A program made the translations under genes and the position numbers. A stretch of DNA of 64,000 bases from Dehalococcoidia bacterium (lineage in GTDB: Bacteria > Chloroflexota > Dehalococcoidia > SM23-28-2 > RBG-16-64-32): assembly GCA_963665775.2 (NCBI GenBank), contig CAXXTF010000002.1:1408001-1472000 (forward strand), written 5' to 3'. The notes under the pieces were generated by a model. That model was not told the DNA's origin, searched no databases, and saw nothing but the letters and a program-made list of their open reading frames with translations. This document shows positions 13,155-39,553 of this stretch, piece after piece; the stretch's first letter is position 1; each line of letters opens with the position of its first letter.

Positions 13155-13364
13155 CTACGCCTTGCCTGAGAGGCCGGTGCCAGCGCCGGGAGTGATCAGG
13201 AAGGCTGGCGGCTTTAGGGATTCGCTGGCGGTCTGTGGCTTCAGCTCGTCGTCGTCCTCCGCGGTGAAGCCACAATCCTCGCACATGTAGTATTCTCCCC
13301 ACATGTCCCAGGAGATCCCCAGAGGCTGGCTACAGCAGGGGCAGCGCTGGGGCGTTGGCTGCAT
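13155..13364 (-). CDS. Small zinc-ribbon protein (69 aa) downstream of c-di-AMP riboswitch 1
   Basis: CPCC-x16-CEDCG; strong SD AGGAGGTG upstream. Confidence 0.8.
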   Translation of the reverse strand: MQPTPQRCPCCSQPLGISWDMWGEYYMCEDCGFTAEDDDELKPQTASESLKPPAFLITPGAGTGLSGKA

Positions 13365-13391: not shown

Positions 13392-13430
13392 AAAAAATAT
13401 AGCGGGCCGGAGGGCATAGCCCCGGCCCGA
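13392..13430 (-). terminator. Intrinsic terminator, expression platform of riboswitch 1
   Basis: Minus strand CGGGCCGG-ggctatgccct-CCGGCCCG then CTATATTTTTT. Confidence 0.75.
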
Positions 13431-13450
13431 TGGCTGCTATGACCTCTTTC

Positions 13451-13583
13451 AGCGGCCTGCGAGGTTAGCTGTCGGGTTAGGGCTGAAAGAGCTGCCCTTT
13501 CGCCGCCGGCGAATTCACCCCAGTCGGTCGGGTCCCCCGCTCTCCGCTCTGGCTATCTGGCCAGGCGGCAGATTCGGCCTAGC
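13451..13583 (-). ncRNA. c-di-AMP riboswitch (ydaO/yuaA class), copy 1
   Basis: Minus strand GGCCGAATC...GCGGGGGACCC...GGGGTGAAT...AGGG...CCCTAACCCGACAGCTAACCTCGCAGGCC matches the ydaO/yuaA consensus blocks in order. Confidence 0.9.
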
Positions 13584-13603
13584 TTGGTCGCGAACTCGAA
13601 TAC

Positions 13604-13632
13604 ACAATAGAAGGCGATCCAGGATTTGTCAA
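13604..13632 (-). promoter_or_regulatory. Sigma70 promoter for the riboswitch 1 transcript
   Basis: TTGACA-17 nt-TATTGT. Confidence 0.7.
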
Positions 13633-13774: not shown

Positions 13775-14572
13775 ATGACCACACGAAGCTTGTCTAGAGG
13801 GAGATCGTCTGCCCAACTCCAGGAGCTGAGCAGCAATGTGGGAGCCAAGGCTGCCCTTGCCCTAGCCGACGCCGAACTGTGGTCGCCGGCCCTGGAGGCC
13901 TCTCTTCAGGACCTCGGCTTCAGCGTCTCCTTCGCCTTCGAGCTTCACGAGCTGTTTGAGGCCTCTCGCACCGAGACCGCTACCCTGCTGATCTTGGCCA
14001 AACGCAACCCTCGCTTCGTGGTACAGGCCTGCCGCGCTATGCGAGGCCTTCAGGACGTGCCTATCTTCGTCATCATGCCTGAGGAGAGCGATCTCATTCC
14101 TGTGCTGGACGCTGGCGCTGACGATGCCGTCGTCGCCCGTGTGGACCCCGGCGTCTTCGCCGCCCGCGCCCGCGCCCTCCTCCGGCGGGTCCACCGCTCC
14201 ACCCGCGGCAGTGTTATCGCCATCCGCGATCTGGAGATCGATCTGGACACCTGCCAAGTCACTATGGGGGGCCGCATCATTGCCCTCACTCCCACTGAGT
14301 TTCGCCTTCTGGCCATTCTGATCCAGAGCGCCGGCCGCGTTCTGGATGCCCGTACCCTCCTTTCCGCCGTTCATGAACACGACTACAGTGATCGTGACGC
14401 TCAGAGCCTGGTTAAGGTTCACATCGCCAACATCCGCCGCAAGCTGAACGACTCCCACACAGACAGTCCCTACATCCTTTGCGTCCGCGGCTTCGGCTAC
14501 ATGTTGGAGCGCCGCTTCGAGCCTCGGGAAGGCGATCCCCTGGCTCCTCTCATCAAGACCGGTGCCTCCTAG
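13775..14572 (+). CDS. Orphan OmpR/PhoB-family regulator with atypical receiver domain
   Basis: LDAGADD, LTPTEFRLL, VKVHIANIRRKL, VRGFGY; phospho-acceptor Asp and conserved Lys not evident; start may be ATG 13836. Confidence 0.88.
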   Translation: MTTRSLSRGRSSAQLQELSSNVGAKAALALADAELWSPALEASLQDLGFSVSFAFELHELFEASRTETATLLILAKRNPRFVVQACRAMRGLQDVPIFVIMPEESDLIPVLDAGADDAVVARVDPGVFAARARALLRRVHRSTRGSVIAIRDLEIDLDTCQVTMGGRIIALTPTEFRLLAILIQSAGRVLDARTLLSAVHEHDYSDRDAQSLVKVHIANIRRKLNDSHTDSPYILCVRGFGYMLERRFEPREGDPLAPLIKTGAS

Positions 14573-30250: not shown

Positions 30251-30482
30251 CACATACTGGGCCTAGCATTATCCAGCCATGTTTCCGACTTACCTGCGGC
30301 CATCGCTGGCGGTCGCCACTCTATTCACACACCATTAACTCATAGTGTCGCGCCGTCGATTGATTCGTTTCGGCCGATTCGCTCCCGTTACGTCCCACGT
30401 TCTCCGCCGCCTCGCTTGACTTCCTCTTGCAGCAGAGTGATGAATGCAACACGGCCTTCTATATCTAAGTGTGGGGGGGAGC

Positions 30483-31457
30483 ATGGAGAGAAACGGCGAC
30501 GGCAACGGTAGCCACCAGCGGGACCTGACGGGGATCATCGAACTCTACCTCACCTCCTGTCGCATCGAGGGGAAGTCCAAGGAGACCATCCGGTCTTATC
30601 GGGAGACCCTTGGGATCTTTACGAATGTGATCGAGGAGAAGAGACTACCCGAGGATCTCGCCTCCTTCACCGCTGCCCACGTCTACCAGTTCCTGGGGTG
30701 CGTGGCCGACACCGGCGTCTCGGCCATGACCCAGTGGCGCCGGCAACGGGAGACCAGAGCCTTCTTCTCCTGGCTGATGCGTCATGACTACGTGGCGACC
30801 AACCCGTTCTCCAAGGTGAAGAACATCAAGGTGCCGCAGAAGGTGATTCGGCCCTTCTCCCAGGAGGATGTCCTGCGCCTTCTCGCCTACTGCCATCCCT
30901 CGACCCACAAAGGGGGCAGAGACCGGGCCCTCATTCTCGTCCTGCTGGACACTGGCCTTAGGGCGACCGAGTTATGTAACCTTCTGCTGGAAGAGGTCGA
31001 CTTTGAGACTGGGCGCATGCACGTCAGTCACGGGAAGGGGAACAAACAGCGGGTGGTCCGGTTTGGGGATGAGGCGCGCCGGGCCATCCAGCACTACCTG
31101 GGACGGTTCCGAGGCGGTGGCCCCGGGCCGCTATTTCTGACCTGCCGGGGCGGACAACTGTGCCGGACTGCCCTGCGGACCATCTTCCAGAGGCTGGGCC
31201 AGAAGGCCTCTCTACATCACGTACATCCGCATCGCTTCCGCCACACCTTCGCCACCTGGGCCATCGAGCAGCAAGCGAGGGAGATTGACGTACAGGCGCT
31301 TCTTGGCCACTCCACGCCGGCGATGCTACGGCGCTACACGGCGACCTACGATGCCGAGAAAGCGGCGCAGGCCCACGTCCTGTTCAGCCCGGCAGATCGC
31401 TTGAAGGGGAGGCTAGCGGAGGGTAGCCCGATTTCTGGGAAGGCCCGATTAGCCTGA
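30483..31457 (+). CDS. Tyrosine recombinase/integrase 1
   Basis: SAM-like N-terminus; LLDTGLRATEL, GKGNKQR, HPHRFRH, LLGHS, RRY catalytic set. Confidence 0.93.
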   Translation: MERNGDGNGSHQRDLTGIIELYLTSCRIEGKSKETIRSYRETLGIFTNVIEEKRLPEDLASFTAAHVYQFLGCVADTGVSAMTQWRRQRETRAFFSWLMRHDYVATNPFSKVKNIKVPQKVIRPFSQEDVLRLLAYCHPSTHKGGRDRALILVLLDTGLRATELCNLLLEEVDFETGRMHVSHGKGNKQRVVRFGDEARRAIQHYLGRFRGGGPGPLFLTCRGGQLCRTALRTIFQRLGQKASLHHVHPHRFRHTFATWAIEQQAREIDVQALLGHSTPAMLRRYTATYDAEKAAQAHVLFSPADRLKGRLAEGSPISGKARLA

Positions 31458-32058: not shown

Positions 32059-32967
32059 TTAGTCGCTCCTGGGCTCGTCCAATCGCCTCTCGACGTCGTG
32101 GAGGAACCGATCCAGCTCAGGAGAAAGCGTGGGGCTGTCTTCCTCTCGTGCGGGTGACTCCGGCTCTAAATCGTAGGCCGCCTCTAACTCGCGCACCATC
32201 GCTTCCGCACCAGAGTCCTGCCGGGTCTTCTCATCGAGGGCGGCGCACTGACCCCCCGATCTTTTCCGTACGTCGTCTAGGTTCAGAGATAGATCGTAGA
32301 GGCCGGACAGGAGTTCTAGCAGGGCGTTCAGGCCCCGGTAGTACGGGTCCACTTCAAAGTAGCCAGGCAACTGGAGCATCACGGTCAAGGTATCGATTCC
32401 TAGCGGTTGGACCTCGTTAGTAACGAGGCTAAGGATGGAGGTGGGCCCCTGATATGTTCCTGTGCCCACCCTTACGCCGAGCTGGCGCAGTCGCTCTTGA
32501 AGCGCGTCATCGCTGGCGCTGCCGCTAATTATCGGGGGCCTGGTGTGCGGCACCGGTGCCGACATGGAACCTACGCGGCAATAGTGGCGAACCCCAAGAT
32601 GCTGCAGGAGGGCGAGCACAGACGCCACGTACTCCTCGCCGTGCGCATGGGGTTCTAGCATGTTGAGGAGCAGCCAGTCTTGGCCGTCAGTCGCCTGCGC
32701 ATAGTGCAAGGAGGTGTTCGGCAGAGTTAGTTCACGCTGTCCCTCTTTTAGAGTCGTGGTGGGACGATATCGGGTGAAGTCATAAAAGGTGCCCGGCCGA
32801 GTTAGCTGTCCCAGCAGCTCTGCTCGCCACTCCTCCCCCAAGAAGGTCAGGGCCTTCGACCCCACGGAGCCAACGTCGATCCAGGGTCGGAGGGCCGCCA
32901 AGAGACGAGGGTGCCTAAGCTTAGGCACTGGCTCCCGAAGTTCAAAGGCGCCAACTTGGATGGTCAT
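32059..32967 (-). CDS. PAC2 (proteasome assembly chaperone) family protein
   Basis: PWIDVGSVG, FYDFTRYRP, LEPH, VPHTRP, YQGPTSI. Confidence 0.85.
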   Translation of the reverse strand: MTIQVGAFELREPVPKLRHPRLLAALRPWIDVGSVGSKALTFLGEEWRAELLGQLTRPGTFYDFTRYRPTTTLKEGQRELTLPNTSLHYAQATDGQDWLLLNMLEPHAHGEEYVASVLALLQHLGVRHYCRVGSMSAPVPHTRPPIISGSASDDALQERLRQLGVRVGTGTYQGPTSILSLVTNEVQPLGIDTLTVMLQLPGYFEVDPYYRGLNALLELLSGLYDLSLNLDDVRKRSGGQCAALDEKTRQDSGAEAMVRELEAAYDLEPESPAREEDSPTLSPELDRFLHDVERRLDEPRSD

Positions 32968-33074
32968 GGTTAACGCTATATTGCCACGATTCTGTAATGC
33001 AGGCACGCCCTCCGAAGAAACGAGCCTCTGGGCCAGGGGAGCACTTCGCACACCTGCGTCACGCTGTCTGGCCT

Positions 33075-33201
33075 CCTCCCTGCGAGCCAATATCTCGCTC
33101 CGGCGCCCGTAGTAGACGTCTGCGGGCGTGACGTTGCCAATCCCCTCGTGGTTGCGTCGGTTGTTGTAGTACGCGATGAAGGCGGCCACCGCCTCTTCCA
33201 G
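33075..33201 (-). mobile_element. IS3-family transposase C-terminal fragment
   Basis: LEEAVAAFIAYYNNRRNHEGIGNVTPADVYYGR. Confidence 0.75.
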
Positions 33202-33302
33202 CGCAGTGCTAGCAGGTTCGGAAGCGGTGGCGACAACCACAAGAGGGCGAGCCTGTCTGTGCCGCTACCTCGACGTGACGGCGCACTGTGGCTGAATAGT
33301 GT

Positions 33303-33461
33303 TCATCTAATAGGTGGCCGCTGGGCCTGACCTACGGCTATCTTGGGCCCGGGCTCGATCTCTATCCCGCACAGCAGGCAAGCATAGTAGTCACCGTAGA
33401 CGTCGTGCTGACGTACGAGGTCGCCCAGGCATCTGGGACACGCCTTCAGAACGAAACTCAT
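33303..33461 (-). CDS. Small zinc-ribbon protein (52 aa) downstream of c-di-AMP riboswitch 2
   Basis: MSFVLKACPRCLGDLVRQHDVYGDYYACLLCG; colinear with the 13155-13364 protein. Confidence 0.78.
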   Translation of the reverse strand: MSFVLKACPRCLGDLVRQHDVYGDYYACLLCGIEIEPGPKIAVGQAQRPPIR

Positions 33462-33540
33462 ATCGCCCCGGTCCTGCACCCGCTCTGGAGTTCGGTTGCG
33501 CATACAAACCGCCCTTCTCTTGCGGGCCGTCTCACCATGT

Positions 33541-33575
33541 AAAACGGAGCCAAGGGCCTTGCCTCTGGCTCCGTT
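33541..33575 (-). terminator. Intrinsic terminator, expression platform of riboswitch 2
   Basis: Minus strand AACGGAGCCA-gaggcaaggccct-TGGCTCCGTT-TT. Confidence 0.7.
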
Positions 33576-33596
33576 CAACGGCACATGCGGCCCTCT

Positions 33597-33720
33597 CAGT
33601 GGCCTACGAGGTTAGCTGACGGACTAGGGCTGAGAGTAACTACCCTTCCTGCCAATGCAGGATACGCCCCCAGGAATTGGTTCCCCCGTTCCCCAACGAA
33701 GCTGGGGATTTGGCCTTCAA
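33597..33720 (-). ncRNA. c-di-AMP riboswitch (ydaO/yuaA class), copy 2
   Basis: Minus strand GGCCAAATCCCC...GGGGAACGGGGGAACC...GGGGCGTATCC...AGGG...CCCTAGTCCGTCAGCTAACCTCGTAGGCC. Confidence 0.88.
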
Positions 33721-33728
33721 CGTCCCTA

Positions 33729-33758
33729 ATTAGATCACAGCCACCCAAATCCTGTCAA
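33729..33758 (-). promoter_or_regulatory. Sigma70 promoter for the riboswitch 2 transcript
   Basis: TTGACA-18 nt-TCTAAT. Confidence 0.6.
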
Positions 33759-33788: not shown

Positions 33789-35222
33789 CTAGATGTCTGC
33801 CCGCTGGAGCAGCCTGGCGTACTGGACCAGGTGGCGCATGCCCAGGTAGTTCTCGCGTACTCTTTCGCCAGCGTTCCTACCGAGTTGCCCCGCGAAGTCA
33901 CTGTCCTCCAGGAGACGGCGTAACGCGGCGGTGAAGGACTCAAGGTCCGTCGGGTCTTGAAGCAGGAGGCCGTGAACCTCGTTCTCGATCTGGTCCTGGA
34001 TACCCCCGACAGCGCTGGCCACGATGGGGCGACGCTTCCACATGGCCTCGGTGACGGTCAGACCAAAGCCCTCCTCCAGGCTTTTCTGCACCATAACAGC
34101 AGCATGCCGCTGCAGCGCATTCACGATCGCCGCGTTCTCCTCCACGTCCGCCATGGGAAGGCAGGCAAGGCGAATCCGGTTTCGATCCGCATGAGACAGA
34201 CGGCGCCAAGCTTCGACCACCTCGTCGAAAGTAGCGGTCTGTTCGGGGTCGTCGTCGATCGCTCTCACATTGGGGCCCGCCAGGACCAGCTCGGCGTCGG
34301 CGGGTGCCGCGCCGTCCACCATCTCGGCGAATCCCTTGAGCACACCGACCGGGTCCTTCAGCCTATCCCATCGCGACACCTGCACCACCAGCGGCATCTC
34401 CCACATCGGGGCACGACCGACGCGGCTAATGTCGGCCCGGCGGTCCACGCGTCCCGGCGAGCCATCCTCGCGGACGAACGTTGGCGAAGCGTCGCCGGGC
34501 GGCCCTTCGACCAAACCTACATGCACCAGGATGGCCCGGATAGTGGGCTCGTCCAACTCCTGGTTCTTGGCGGAGAAGGGGTCGATGGAGGGCGGAATAA
34601 TAACGCTGCAGCCGCTATCGCAACACGCCGGGATGTACTGTTGACGGGTGAAAACGTTGGCCGCCACGTCCTCCAGGTAGGGGGCCAAGAAGTTCCATCC
34701 CAGATCTACCTGCTCGCTGACCTCGTCAGTGCCTATGTGGCATCGCCAGATCACTATGGCCCCCATCCGTATCAGATAGGGAGCCAGGCCAGCGGTCTGA
34801 GGATCGTGAAGGAGCACGAAATCGCGGGGACGGATCAGTCCTGACAGCTCCTCCGCATTGGCATGAAGCACCCGCTCATAGATGGCGCGTTCGGCCCCTC
34901 CTAGCGGCGTGCCGTCGCCTAAGGACCCGTGTAGAGTGTGGTGTAGGCGCTTGGTGATGTTGAAGAACTCGGGGGTTCCGCTTATGACGATCCATCGGGT
35001 GTCGATGTCTAGCCCGCGGGCGTACGGTAGGAGAGAGCGGATCATCTCGGCTACGCCGCCGCCCCGCGCTGTGGAACTCACGTTCCAGAAGACCCGACCC
35101 ACCATCCTTCTCCGCGCTTCCTCAGCTACTTCATAGACCTCGTGGACCCCTTCCTCCCCGAAAAACGGCAAGAAGCGGTCAATCGGCTGGGCGCTGACCT
35201 GAACCTCGTGCAGCCGGCTCAT
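33789..35222 (-). CDS. treT: Trehalose synthase (TreT-like GT4 glycosyltransferase)
   Basis: STARGGGVAEM, LHDPQ, WRCHI, QVSRWDRLKDP, QKSLEEGFGLTVTEAMWK. Confidence 0.88.
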   Translation of the reverse strand: MSRLHEVQVSAQPIDRFLPFFGEEGVHEVYEVAEEARRRMVGRVFWNVSSTARGGGVAEMIRSLLPYARGLDIDTRWIVISGTPEFFNITKRLHHTLHGSLGDGTPLGGAERAIYERVLHANAEELSGLIRPRDFVLLHDPQTAGLAPYLIRMGAIVIWRCHIGTDEVSEQVDLGWNFLAPYLEDVAANVFTRQQYIPACCDSGCSVIIPPSIDPFSAKNQELDEPTIRAILVHVGLVEGPPGDASPTFVREDGSPGRVDRRADISRVGRAPMWEMPLVVQVSRWDRLKDPVGVLKGFAEMVDGAAPADAELVLAGPNVRAIDDDPEQTATFDEVVEAWRRLSHADRNRIRLACLPMADVEENAAIVNALQRHAAVMVQKSLEEGFGLTVTEAMWKRRPIVASAVGGIQDQIENEVHGLLLQDPTDLESFTAALRRLLEDSDFAGQLGRNAGERVRENYLGMRHLVQYARLLQRADI

Positions 35223-35914: not shown

Positions 35915-37615
35915 CTAGCTCTCCGCATGGTAGTCGCGCCGCCGGCGGGCCAGCACCGCCTGCACCTCCTGGCTGGGCACCCCGAACCGATGCAGCGTGT
36001 GCCTCACGAACTCCAGCCCCACCTCGAACTCCCCGTGCACCACCTCGGCGGCACCGGCCCCACGGAGCCGCAGATGGCTCTCCTCCTCGCCGCCGCGCGC
36101 GACGATGTCCAGCCGCGGGCTGATCTGGTGGGCCGCCACCGCCACCGCCTCCACCTGCGACACGTCGGTCAGCGTCACCGCCAGTAGCCGCGCCTCCTCC
36201 AGCCCTGCCTGCGCCAGGACGGCGGGTAGCGCCGGGTCGCCCAAGATGCAGGGCACCCCCTGTGCCTGCAACTGGCGGATTACCACCGGATCCTGGTCGA
36301 TGACAAGAAAGCGAAAGTCCCTGAAGGAGAGAGCTGCTGCCACCTCCCGTCCCGCCTCGTTGAATCCGCAAATGACCGCGTGGTTCACCAGCGCCTTGGG
36401 CTCAGGGACGTGGGCCTCGGTTCGCTCCTCCATGAGCCCTCCCAAACCGGGCGCACTCCGCAGGGCTCGGAGCAGCGCATCCTGTCCCAGGAAAAGGAGG
36501 GGGCTGACGGCGATGCTCAGAAGGATGGCAGCCAGCACCGCCTCATTGATCTCTACATCGAAGACACCCTCGCTCACGCCCTGGCTAGCCAGGACGAAGG
36601 AGAACTCCCCCATGTTCCCCAGAGCGATTCCCGCCGTCAGAGCAGCCTTCCGCGTATACCCGAAGGCCACGGCGATCCCGCTTACCAGCACCAGCTTGCC
36701 GACGATCCCCAGCGCCGCCGCGCCGAACACGATCTCAGGCTGGTCCACGAAGCTGTTGGGATCGATAAGCATACCGACGGCCACGAAGAAGACCACCGCG
36801 AATACCTCTCGCAGGGGGAACACCTCGGCCAGCGTCCTGTGAGCGTACTCCGACTCCGAGACCAGGAGCCCGGCCAGGAACGCTCCGAAGGCCAGGGTTA
36901 GGCCCGCCAGGGAGCTGACGGAGGCGGTGCCCAGAGCCAGCGCCACTACGGTGAGGAGGAACAGCTCTCGGGAACGCGCCAGGCTAACCCGCGCCAGGAC
37001 CCGCGGCACTATCAATGTACCGACGATCCACACACCGACCAGCAGCCCCGCCGCTTTAGCAGCCGCCAGCCCCAGGGACGGCAGAACGTTCTCTTCATCC
37101 CCAGCGATTACCGGGATCATGACGATGAGTGGCACCACCGCCATGTCCTGGATGAGGGCGAAGGCCACGCCCGCTCTGCCCGCCGCCGCGCCTATCTCGC
37201 CCCGGTCCTCCAGGAGGCGTAGCGCCACCATCGTGCTGGAGATGGAGATAACCGCGCCCAGGAGCAGCGCCTCGTCCGTCGATAGCCCCAGGGCCCAGCC
37301 CAGCAGGACGCCCAGGCCGATCATCACCCCAATCTGGCTCAGCCCGCCGAACACGGCGAGGCCGCGCACCCGTACCAGCTCGCGCAGCGAGAAGCGGATG
37401 CCCAGCGTGAACATCAGGAGGGCCACACCCAGATCGGCCACCGTCTGCACTTCGTCGATGTCGCCGACCAGGCCGGGGGTATTGGGCCCGATGGCGAGGC
37501 CCGCCGCCAGATAGCCTAGCAGAGACGGCAGCCGCAGCAATCGAGCCACCACCCCGCCCACGAGCGCAGCCGCCATCACGACGGCCAGGTTACCTACGAG
37601 GCCAAGTTCTTCCAT
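35915..37615 (-). CDS. Kef-type cation:proton antiporter (CPA2) with TrkA-N/KTN domain
   Basis: GVALLMFTLG, SISSTMVA, LIQD, GAFLAG, GEFSFVL; C-terminal VICGF...GDP. Confidence 0.9.
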   Translation of the reverse strand: MEELGLVGNLAVVMAAALVGGVVARLLRLPSLLGYLAAGLAIGPNTPGLVGDIDEVQTVADLGVALLMFTLGIRFSLRELVRVRGLAVFGGLSQIGVMIGLGVLLGWALGLSTDEALLLGAVISISSTMVALRLLEDRGEIGAAAGRAGVAFALIQDMAVVPLIVMIPVIAGDEENVLPSLGLAAAKAAGLLVGVWIVGTLIVPRVLARVSLARSRELFLLTVVALALGTASVSSLAGLTLAFGAFLAGLLVSESEYAHRTLAEVFPLREVFAVVFFVAVGMLIDPNSFVDQPEIVFGAAALGIVGKLVLVSGIAVAFGYTRKAALTAGIALGNMGEFSFVLASQGVSEGVFDVEINEAVLAAILLSIAVSPLLFLGQDALLRALRSAPGLGGLMEERTEAHVPEPKALVNHAVICGFNEAGREVAAALSFRDFRFLVIDQDPVVIRQLQAQGVPCILGDPALPAVLAQAGLEEARLLAVTLTDVSQVEAVAVAAHQISPRLDIVARGGEEESHLRLRGAGAAEVVHGEFEVGLEFVRHTLHRFGVPSQEVQAVLARRRRDYHAES

Positions 37616-38606: not shown

Positions 38607-39553
38607 GGTTCCGTCAGAACTCAGGGCGCGGGGGTAAACTTGTCTCAATGTAGGAGAGGAGCCACCCATGAACTGCCCACACTGCCGATCGACGGCCACC
38701 AGCAAACGGATGCACCGCACCACCCTGGGATACCTCAGGTTCTCGTGTAGGTCTTGCCATCGTCGCTTCAACGAACGTACCGGTACGCCCTACAACGATC
38801 TCCAGTTCCCCACCGACATCGTCCTGTTGGCGGTCCTCTGGCGGCTACGCTACAAGCTAGGGTTCCGCGACGTCGCCGAACTGCTCCTTCAGCGAGGCTA
38901 CGAGGTCACGCACGAGACAGTACGGGCCTGGGAGTTCCGGTTTGCTCCTCTCCTGGGCGAACAACTGCGTACCCGGCGGCGCGGCCAGACAAGAGGTCTC
39001 TCCTGGTATCTAGATGAGACCTACGTGAAGGTCAGCGGTCGTTGGCGTTACCTGTACCGCGCCATTGACCCGGACGGCAATCTCCTAGACTCGATGCTGA
39101 GTGAGCGAAGGGATAGAGCGGCTGCCCGTCTCTTTCTACGGCGGCTGGCCGACGTCACGACCCACAAGCCGTTGCGCCTCACCACCGATCAGCATCCGGC
39201 CTACGGAAAGGCGATCCGCTGGATACTGGGACGGAAGGTCTTGCACCGGCAGAGCCGGTACCTGAACAATCGTATCGAGCAGGACCATCGGGCCATAAAA
39301 CAGCGCTACTACCCCATGCTGGGGTTCAAGCGAATGGAGTCGGCGAAGCGCTTCTGCTCGGCGTTCGAAGAGTTGCGTCAGTACTTGCGCATCCGCCCGC
39401 CCATTGGCAAGCAGGTGTCGTTGCCAGAGAGACGTCGAGTCTTCCTAGAGAGATGGAAAGCGTTGACGGCGGAGATGGCAGCGGCGTAATCGGTTCGGAT
39501 TTCGAACCGAGATTCATCTCCGCGGCATTGGCGCCCTGAGTTCTGACAGAACC
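38607..39553 (+). mobile_element. IS6-family insertion sequence (transposase 38668-39489)
   Basis: 23 bp IR GGTTCCGTCAGAACTCAGGGCGC with one mismatch; WYLDETYVKV, YLYRAID, NNRIEQDHR; N-terminal zinc finger; no target duplication seen. Confidence 0.93.

Follow-up and report, generated by a model that had tools for sequence, protein, structure and literature searches.

The stretch of DNA analysed here, which we refer to as the window (64,000 nucleotides of a Dehalococcoidia bacterium), carries at positions 33303–33758 a c-di-AMP riboswitch followed by a very small open reading frame. Bacteria depend on the essential second messenger c-di-AMP to keep potassium and osmotic conditions in balance, and the outputs known for it so far comprise transporters, a small number of receptor proteins, and transporter and cell-wall genes under riboswitch control. 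The first-pass annotation of this DNA proposed that the unit at 33 kb and a second one at 13 kb are members of a family of c-di-AMP-repressed zinc-ribbon microproteins that had not been described before. We have followed this proposal from the layout of the unit itself to the distribution of the protein family and its association with the riboswitch, and finally to the role that the protein might play.

The riboswitch unit at 33 kb

The features of the unit and its nearest neighbours are as follows:

33758–33753 (TTGACA) and 33734–33729 (TCTAAT), minus strand: promoter-like element with an 18-nt spacer, read from the sequence
33586–33725, minus strand: c-di-AMP riboswitch aptamer, RF00379 (86.5 bits, E 8.6e-19, model positions 1–134)
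33541–33573, minus strand: terminator-like hairpin followed by UUUU (stem 33573–33545, U-run 33544–33541; MFE fold, dG -20.6 kcal/mol)
33303–33503, minus strand: type C zinc-ribbon microprotein of 66 aa (P0016; identical database protein, relatives share the N-terminal extension)
33461 (start), minus strand: the earlier 52-aa reading of the same type C ORF (P0001)
33789–35222, minus strand: treT (PF21269, E 1.6e-43), immediately upstream of the riboswitch unit
35915–37615: protein with Na_H_Exchanger and TrkA_N domains (Pfam)

The aptamers in the window were both judged over the whole model against the RF00379 gathering score of 38 bits, which this one clearly exceeds. The promoter–aptamer–terminator–ORF layout claimed for the unit is confirmed: the aptamer, hairpin, ORF and promoter-like boxes are all present, but the promoter was not called by our consensus scan (there is a C at the second position of the -10 box) and the hairpin was not called by the stricter terminator scan (the U-run has only four residues). 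The hairpin presumably serves as expression platform for an OFF switch, and as the ORF begins approximately 40 nt past the terminator it therefore lies outside this platform.

The first-pass annotation read the ORF as 52 aa, and in this it was probably mistaken. The upstream ATG at 33503 is the more likely start, giving 66 aa, because a 100% identical 66-aa database entry was recovered in the profile search of protein clusters, the arginine-rich N-terminal extension is kept in P0136, P0154 and 21 riboswitch-linked type C loci, and the internal Met that opens the shorter reading is unconserved. The protein has two cysteine pairs, CPRC and CLLC, separated by 16 residues. Metatranscriptome contigs from two runs of a single study cover 33490–33661 (the 3' part of the aptamer, the hairpin and the start codon) and 32963–33379 (the end of the ORF plus downstream DNA), and these give a weak hint, short of proof, of read-through transcription of the unit.

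The treT gene and a Kef/KTN-type antiporter had been reported close by, and both are borne out by the domain matches listed above. We also observed mobile-element scars on either side of the unit (30444–31457, 32059–33240 and 38668–39489), which comprise a phage-type integrase, an integrase-core (rve) fragment and an IS240-type DDE transposase, with the rve fragment fused in frame to the N-terminus of a PAC2-family ORF.

Related units in the same genome

The second unit in the window has the following features:

13604–13632, minus strand: promoter TTGACA-17-TATTGT (10/12 matches; 0.0 expected in shuffles)
13439–13589, minus strand: RF00379 aptamer (90.6 bits, E 6.4e-20)
13393–13429, minus strand: intrinsic terminator (10-pair stem with 9 G-C, T-run; dG -21.1)
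13155–13364, minus strand: type B zinc-ribbon microprotein of 69 aa (P0002; AGGAGG upstream, member of the type B alignment)

Here the promoter and the terminator were both called by the strict scans. Divergent from this unit is a gene (13775–14572, plus strand) for a 265-aa protein with a C-terminal Trans_reg_C domain (E 4.4e-20), which has the OmpR-type winged helix only and no recognised receiver domain.

The genome assembly (2.35 Mb in 2 contigs, 91% complete) contains exactly three RF00379 matches, and all three precede a paralogous zinc-ribbon microprotein gene. The third is located on the other contig (93.5 bits) and has the same layout as the window units, with a gene for a 68-aa type A protein (P0003) which has its own terminator downstream. 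A hairpin with a U-run is found 3' of the aptamer in 3/3 copies (dG -20.6 to -21.1), so that the layout which the earlier annotation saw twice, and for which our Rfam search gave a full-length RF00379 match each time, in fact occurs three times. The genome has one gene with a DAC (cyclase) domain.

The shared motif C-P-x-C-x3-L-x4-D-x-[WY]-G-[ED]-Y-Y-x-C-x2-C-G is present and ungapped in both window proteins, just as the first-pass annotation described it, and the 33-kb protein retains its four Cys and the D-x-[WY]-G core. The 33-kb protein finds the 13-kb protein in BLASTP with E 6e-07 and the third paralog with 2e-09, and is the most divergent of the three.

It should be noted that there is also a fourth, type A-like paralog approximately 20 kb past the end of the window (G000:C2:1491649-1491852, minus strand; positions 1050–1253 of locus L084). 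The terminator and the Shine–Dalgarno part of its leader are ~90% identical to the P0003 leader over the last ~100 nt, the aptamer region has diverged and has no RF00379 score, and the protein is altered at otherwise invariant residues. Located close to the end of the contig, this copy is probably a duplicate that is decaying or has been re-wired.

A family of zinc-ribbon microproteins under purifying selection

The proteins of these units belong to a family of C4 zinc-ribbon microproteins of 52–73 aa. A profile built from the three paralogs recovered 165 clusters at E ≤ 0.01, nearly all of 66–73 aa, unnamed or with generic names, and nearly all from Dehalococcoidia or Chloroflexota sources, as well as 1689 representatives at E ≤ 1e-3 (44 of them ≤ 1e-10). 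We distinguish three subtypes. Type A (P0003) consists of the ribbon, an acidic linker and the C-terminal tail RQRRRQPSHGKLRL; in type B (P0002) a variable tail follows the ribbon motif ISWDMWG...CGFTAEDDDEL; and type C (the 33-kb protein) has a basic N-terminal extension, LKxCPxCLGDLV and CLQC. The basic tail is absent from types B and C, whose tails are acidic or neutral, and type C grades into a wider group with LKxCPxCxGDL...CLQCG which is also present in riboswitch-free genomes.

The claim that the proteins are under selection is well borne out for type A. The 14-residue type A tail is identical in 79/80 loci even with 77 different DNA versions coding for it, the Cys pairs are 16 residues apart in 80/80 ORFs (CPRC-x16-CxxC, with one CARC), the median dN/dS is 0.12 (80 loci; 492 usable of 600 sampled pairs), and the entropy at codon positions 1, 2 and 3 is 0.51, 0.35 and 1.30 (80 loci). 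Type A genes are thus under strong purifying selection, and the dN/dS and codon-position entropy led us to reject a leader peptide or chance ORF as an explanation for them.

Among the genomes searched, the family is limited to one class of the Chloroflexota (Dehalococcoidia), with strong type A matches confined to this class in a phylum-wide sample of 401 genomes. Viral contigs yielded 2 weak matches among 192 candidates, and on this result we rejected a phage family. There was nothing above cut-off in Pfam and NCBIfam for P0001 and P0002, the best E in a PDB sequence search was no better than 0.09, and the ESM Atlas returned unnamed clusters only, either Chloroflexota or viral-labelled. We found no paper on a riboswitch-linked zinc-ribbon microprotein in the literature searched (an unremarked listing in the founding riboswitch papers or their supplements is possible). 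As neither a named family nor a paper was found in these databases and this literature, the association had no prior annotation there, as had been supposed, and the family is apparently undescribed as a microprotein branch of the c-di-AMP riboswitch regulon.

We note that some longer database entries (P0124, P0275 and similar) are ORF calls that run upstream through the aptamer and terminator. These over-extended calls are an annotation artefact of GC-rich DNA, and they mask the riboswitch.

Linkage of the family to the riboswitch

Type A loci were collected by a scan of contigs at one genome per species, from which the best 80 of 327 confirmed stretches were retained. Of these best 80 loci, 76 have RF00379 immediately upstream in the same orientation (20/20, 20/20, 19/20 and 17/20), and for the four aptamer-less loci there was no RF00379 match even at E ≤ 1. 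By a heuristic scan, 48 of 74 type A loci have a terminator-like hairpin and the other 26 show none.

Linkage was also determined for a sample of 151 genomes evenly drawn from the class, using a threshold of at least 88 bits for type A. RF00379 was found in 56/151 genomes with 174 matches, of which the 150 listed were compared by their coordinates, and type A accounted for 44 matches in 43/151 genomes. Of the type A genes, 33/44 are linked (28 by coordinates plus five by an Rfam scan of 16 loci) and 11/44 are without an aptamer. From tables read by eye, 43/43 genomes with type A are riboswitch-positive and 0/95 riboswitch-negative genomes carry type A, a co-occurrence which is descriptive as related genomes are non-independent.

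For type B we took 50 loci from a metagenome scan and sought aptamers with an nhmmer model built on 76 aptamers, which agrees with Rfam on 40/40 test loci. Linkage was seen in 43/47 testable loci (three further loci have too little upstream DNA), and two of the four aptamer-less loci are rubredoxin-like non-members. Type C was scanned for in 65 genomes of the order, 52 of which gave a match, and the aptamer is present in 21 of the best 30 loci; when only loci with the type C N-terminal extension are considered (judged by eye), 21/22 are linked, and those unlinked among the best 30 are wider-group members or truncated or broken copies. The aptamer was absent in 16/16 sampled loci of the wider group.

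The three subtypes, therefore, usually sit behind a c-di-AMP riboswitch, and the prediction of a riboswitch-linked family holds for types A, B and C and for 3/3 units of the genome itself, but it does not extend to the wider type C-like group (0/16). Taken together, these comparisons of sequence indicate that the microprotein branch of the c-di-AMP riboswitch regulon is real and conserved, and that its regulation by the riboswitch is well supported.

The first-pass annotation also held the pairing of switch and gene to be old. We constructed a tree of 98 aptamers, which with 144 columns is of limited resolution, in which a starred split (95) separates 37 type B, two type C and seven other aptamers from 38 type A and 14 others. 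When the gene subtypes are used as labels on this tree they change 11 times compared to a mean of 45.4 for shuffled labels, with 0/200 shuffles giving a value as low. The genome's three aptamers each cluster with their own gene subtype, with the 33-kb aptamer on the type B/C side. The aptamers group by gene subtype, and we therefore agree that the switch-plus-gene units are old and have been inherited as units.

Other riboswitch targets, neighbouring genes and a second control

Approximately 39 of the 174 RF00379 matches in the class sample precede a family member. Twenty other matches were inspected and have varied downstream genes, which encode DedA-like proteins (five), TreT, OtsA, MFS transporters (two) and a SulP transporter, with a YtxH-like protein, two other small zinc proteins and proteins of unknown function making up the remainder. 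In related genomes RF00379 directly precedes genes for a TreT homologue (L104) and for an OtsA-like protein (L113), so trehalose synthesis is part of the c-di-AMP riboswitch regulon of the class, and with the MFS, SulP and DedA-like genes this gives the regulon an osmotic character. The DedA-like membrane protein (~205–225 aa, named by eye) recurs as a direct target (L100, L103, L106, L107 and L108) within the same family and order. In two cases (L111 and L114), unrelated small Cys-rich or zinc-ribbon ORFs of 78 and 91 aa are directly behind RF00379, and the regulon may thus include small zinc proteins more widely. Another locus (L102, G025:C5) has two c-di-AMP aptamers ~1.9 kb apart on the same strand.

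Clustering of the neighbouring genes of 80 type A, 46 type B and 20 wider-group loci revealed neither a partner nor a sigma gene that recurs consistently, and the neighbours which are shared (ABC permease, Dabb-like, alpha/beta hydrolase, MgtE-like and dnaK/grpE) reflect synteny only. Cobalamin/AdoCbl riboswitches are found ~0.2–1.5 kb from the type A unit on the opposite strand at several loci (L015, L048, L051, L095, L097 and L098), and this is probably also conserved synteny.

A CRP-like palindrome, TGTN-N7-TCACA, extends from the -10 box to approximately +9 in 13/14 riboswitch-less type A loci, and is found at the promoter of 37/76 riboswitch-linked type A loci (within the range L004–L099). 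Type A is probably also controlled by a CRP/FNR-type regulator, which would provide a second, protein-based control.

Fold of the microprotein and relatives with sigma-4-like modules

The AF2 model has a three-stranded zinc ribbon (strands 15–21, 24–29 and 35–38) with pLDDT of 82–90 over residues 11–40, and a disordered linker and tail. Fold matches by Foldseek and VIA-align are weak and all below significance (Foldseek E of at least 0.046, VIA Z of at most 3.2), and include the ribbons of ZifS, TFIIB, RPC10/RPB9, NrdR and MqsA; ribosomal and initiation-factor ribbons (eS31, bL31/bL36, eIF2-beta and eIF5) are the equal of polymerase ribbons among them. The C4 ribbon is a generic fold, found as well among antitoxins, ribosomal proteins and translation factors. 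PF08271 had no match to P0001 or P0002 at E ≤ 10, and the fused relatives described below score 14–22 bits with this model compared to a gathering score of 29, which P0301 alone passes (29.7). Nor do the proteins have the zinc-binding anti-sigma (ZAS) domain motif, H-x3-C-x2-C, as there is no His four residues before either CxxC in P0001–P0003.

Longer relatives form 48 clusters, some of which arise from ORF predictions that run on upstream across the aptamer. Of the longer proteins, 18 have 1–4 N-terminal modules followed by a long charged linker, the ribbon and the conserved tail, and one of these is labelled Patescibacteria. The repeated module (..NPW.L...E.T.......G.s..e.A..lY..) was compared with sigma-70 region 4, which binds promoter DNA and the polymerase flap: an alignment of 22 modules matched one of 27 genuine region 4 segments, taken from this and related genomes, with an hhalign probability of 90.6% (E 1.3e-6, 49 columns), whereas controls against ribbon alignments had probabilities of 0.1–0.3%. 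The fused modules are below the PF04545 cut-off, with E of 0.014 and 0.029 in two proteins. As the modules resemble sigma region 4, the ribbon and tail accompany transcription-initiation domains in these relatives. The AF2 model of the fused form P0151 was too poor for use (pLDDT 49.6), and a complex prediction for the genome's own sigma-A regions 3.2–4 with type A gave no answer (a score of 0.04 against a mark of 0.32).

Possible role of the microprotein

The description of the family as c-di-AMP-repressed draws on the terminator architecture. If the switch works as this architecture suggests, at high c-di-AMP the aptamer would permit the terminator to form and the microprotein would go unmade, and at low c-di-AMP transcription would read through and the microprotein would accumulate. 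In other bacteria, falling c-di-AMP is a signal of low potassium or of a need for osmolyte uptake. We suggest, tentatively and giving it somewhat less than an even chance, that the microprotein is a trans-acting regulator of the transcription machinery. It might dock by its TFIIB/RPB9-like ribbon on RNA polymerase, a sigma factor or DNA, with the invariant basic tail of type A acting as the effector or anchor, and such a role would spread the c-di-AMP signal to genes which do not have a riboswitch. We rank this reading first because the ribbon and tail accompany sigma-4-like modules in the longer relatives, though such fusions are rare, come from other organisms, and are a matter of domain co-occurrence rather than of the function of the free protein. 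The structural matches are below significance for what is a generic C4 ribbon, and types B and C are without the basic tail, so a single mechanism may not suit all three subtypes. The neighbouring genes lack a consistent functional clue, and further points against this reading are the aptamer-less type A genes (11/44), the type A loci without a terminator (26/74) and the run of just four U at 33 kb. A bolder version, which we consider unlikely, would make the microproteins a new class of second-messenger-controlled transcription factors, with a TFIIB-like ribbon on RNA polymerase or sigma region 4 and RQRRRQPSHGKLRL as the active element, made only at low c-di-AMP; as the sole riboswitch output of this genome they would be its master relay, and when fused to sigma-4-like domains in Patescibacteria-type organisms they would be sigma-like initiation factors or anti-sigma factors.

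The same ribbon and tail would also suit a protein that binds RNA or the ribosome, like a ribosomal protein or translation factor, and tunes translation at low c-di-AMP. Ribosomal and initiation-factor ribbons score as well as polymerase ribbons (all weakly), and an invariant and very basic tail in type A is what might be expected if the target is a conserved RNA; it may also have something in common with the motif at the N-terminus of ribosomal protein bL34. We nonetheless find this rather unlikely, as there is no significant match, the fusions are to sigma-4-like HTH rather than to RNA-binding or ribosomal domains, and the tails of types B and C are acidic or neutral. If the osmotic setting is given more weight, the microprotein might be a feedback or feed-forward element, and not a gene regulator, acting on some protein involved in osmotic or c-di-AMP homeostasis, for instance a transporter or the Kef-like antiporter, trehalose synthesis, or else the cyclase or a phosphodiesterase. 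In keeping with this, type A is confined to riboswitch-bearing genomes, osmotic-type genes are behind RF00379 in related genomes, and the 33-kb unit directly follows treT and is near the Na_H_Exchanger and TrkA_N gene. However, it is only this copy that is close to treT, the neighbours are not conserved toward any one partner, and the fusions indicate DNA-binding modules, which makes such a role improbable in our judgement. It is very improbable that the ORF at 33 kb is non-functional, whether as a leader peptide, a chance frame or a decaying relic among mobile-element scars. This copy does lie between transposase and integrase remnants, is the most divergent paralog, and has a promoter and terminator that fail the strict scans, and the genome has one decaying copy elsewhere, but the identical 66-aa protein and its close relatives, the retention of type C with the aptamer in 21 loci of the order, the conserved four Cys and D-x-[WY]-G core, the position of the ORF outside the platform and the dN/dS of 0.12 for type A all argue for a working gene.

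The microprotein family is likely a sign that the RNA sensor feeds into a protein relay, a level of control which is undescribed for c-di-AMP, in a class of largely uncultured Dehalococcoidia-type Chloroflexota. It is also an example of how microproteins which annotation has missed or mis-called can be the chief target of a known riboswitch. The three proteins of this genome are small and easily synthesised, and the invariant tail and the sigma-4-like fusions provide handles for a partner search.

Comparison with known systems

The c-di-AMP riboswitch regulon, in the part of the published account available to us, includes transporter genes for potassium and amino acids together with genes of cell-wall remodelling and osmotic shock (PMC7266159). 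The units described here resemble it in having a full-length, high-scoring RF00379 aptamer, a terminator-type platform and an osmotic neighbourhood, and differ in that the controlled gene is a zinc-ribbon microprotein, which is not listed in that part of the account (PMC7266159), and in that this is the only kind of controlled gene in the genome (3/3).

Below threshold, the best matches of the family in Pfam, among PDB sequences and by fold are to the TFIIB, RPB9 and TFIIS ribbons (PF08271 and PF02150), with which it shares the CPxC-x16-CxxCG spacing and the three-stranded ribbon; in contrast, the family members are free-standing bacterial proteins of 52–73 aa with subtype-specific tails that fall below the Pfam cut-offs. 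The top fold match by both Foldseek and VIA-align, though weak, is ZifS from Thermus thermophilus (TTHA0897, 8yoz; Foldseek E 0.046 and TM 0.44, VIA Z 3.2 over 55 residues), which is likewise a free-standing bacterial zinc microprotein but has no sequence match to the family at E ≤ 10. The C(P)XCG micro-proteins of Haloferax volcanii, which are of <70 aa with two Cys pairs and are linked to stress adaptation, are similar by description only; they are archaeal, and a riboswitch or c-di-AMP link is not mentioned in the portions of these papers available to us (PMC6562870, PMC10716476 and PMC11241148). When compared to the C(P)XCG motif, the second knuckle of our proteins is CxxCG in all copies, and in the first, CPRC, the next residue is R, L or S rather than G.

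AsiA, Rsd, DksA/TraR and RbpA are small factors that target sigma region 4 or RNA polymerase, and we found no relation of the family to them in sequence or fold. The likeness is one of analogy only, with a small protein made under a particular condition that reprogrammes RNA polymerase, and the sigma-4-like fusions suggest that the microproteins may belong to the same arena.
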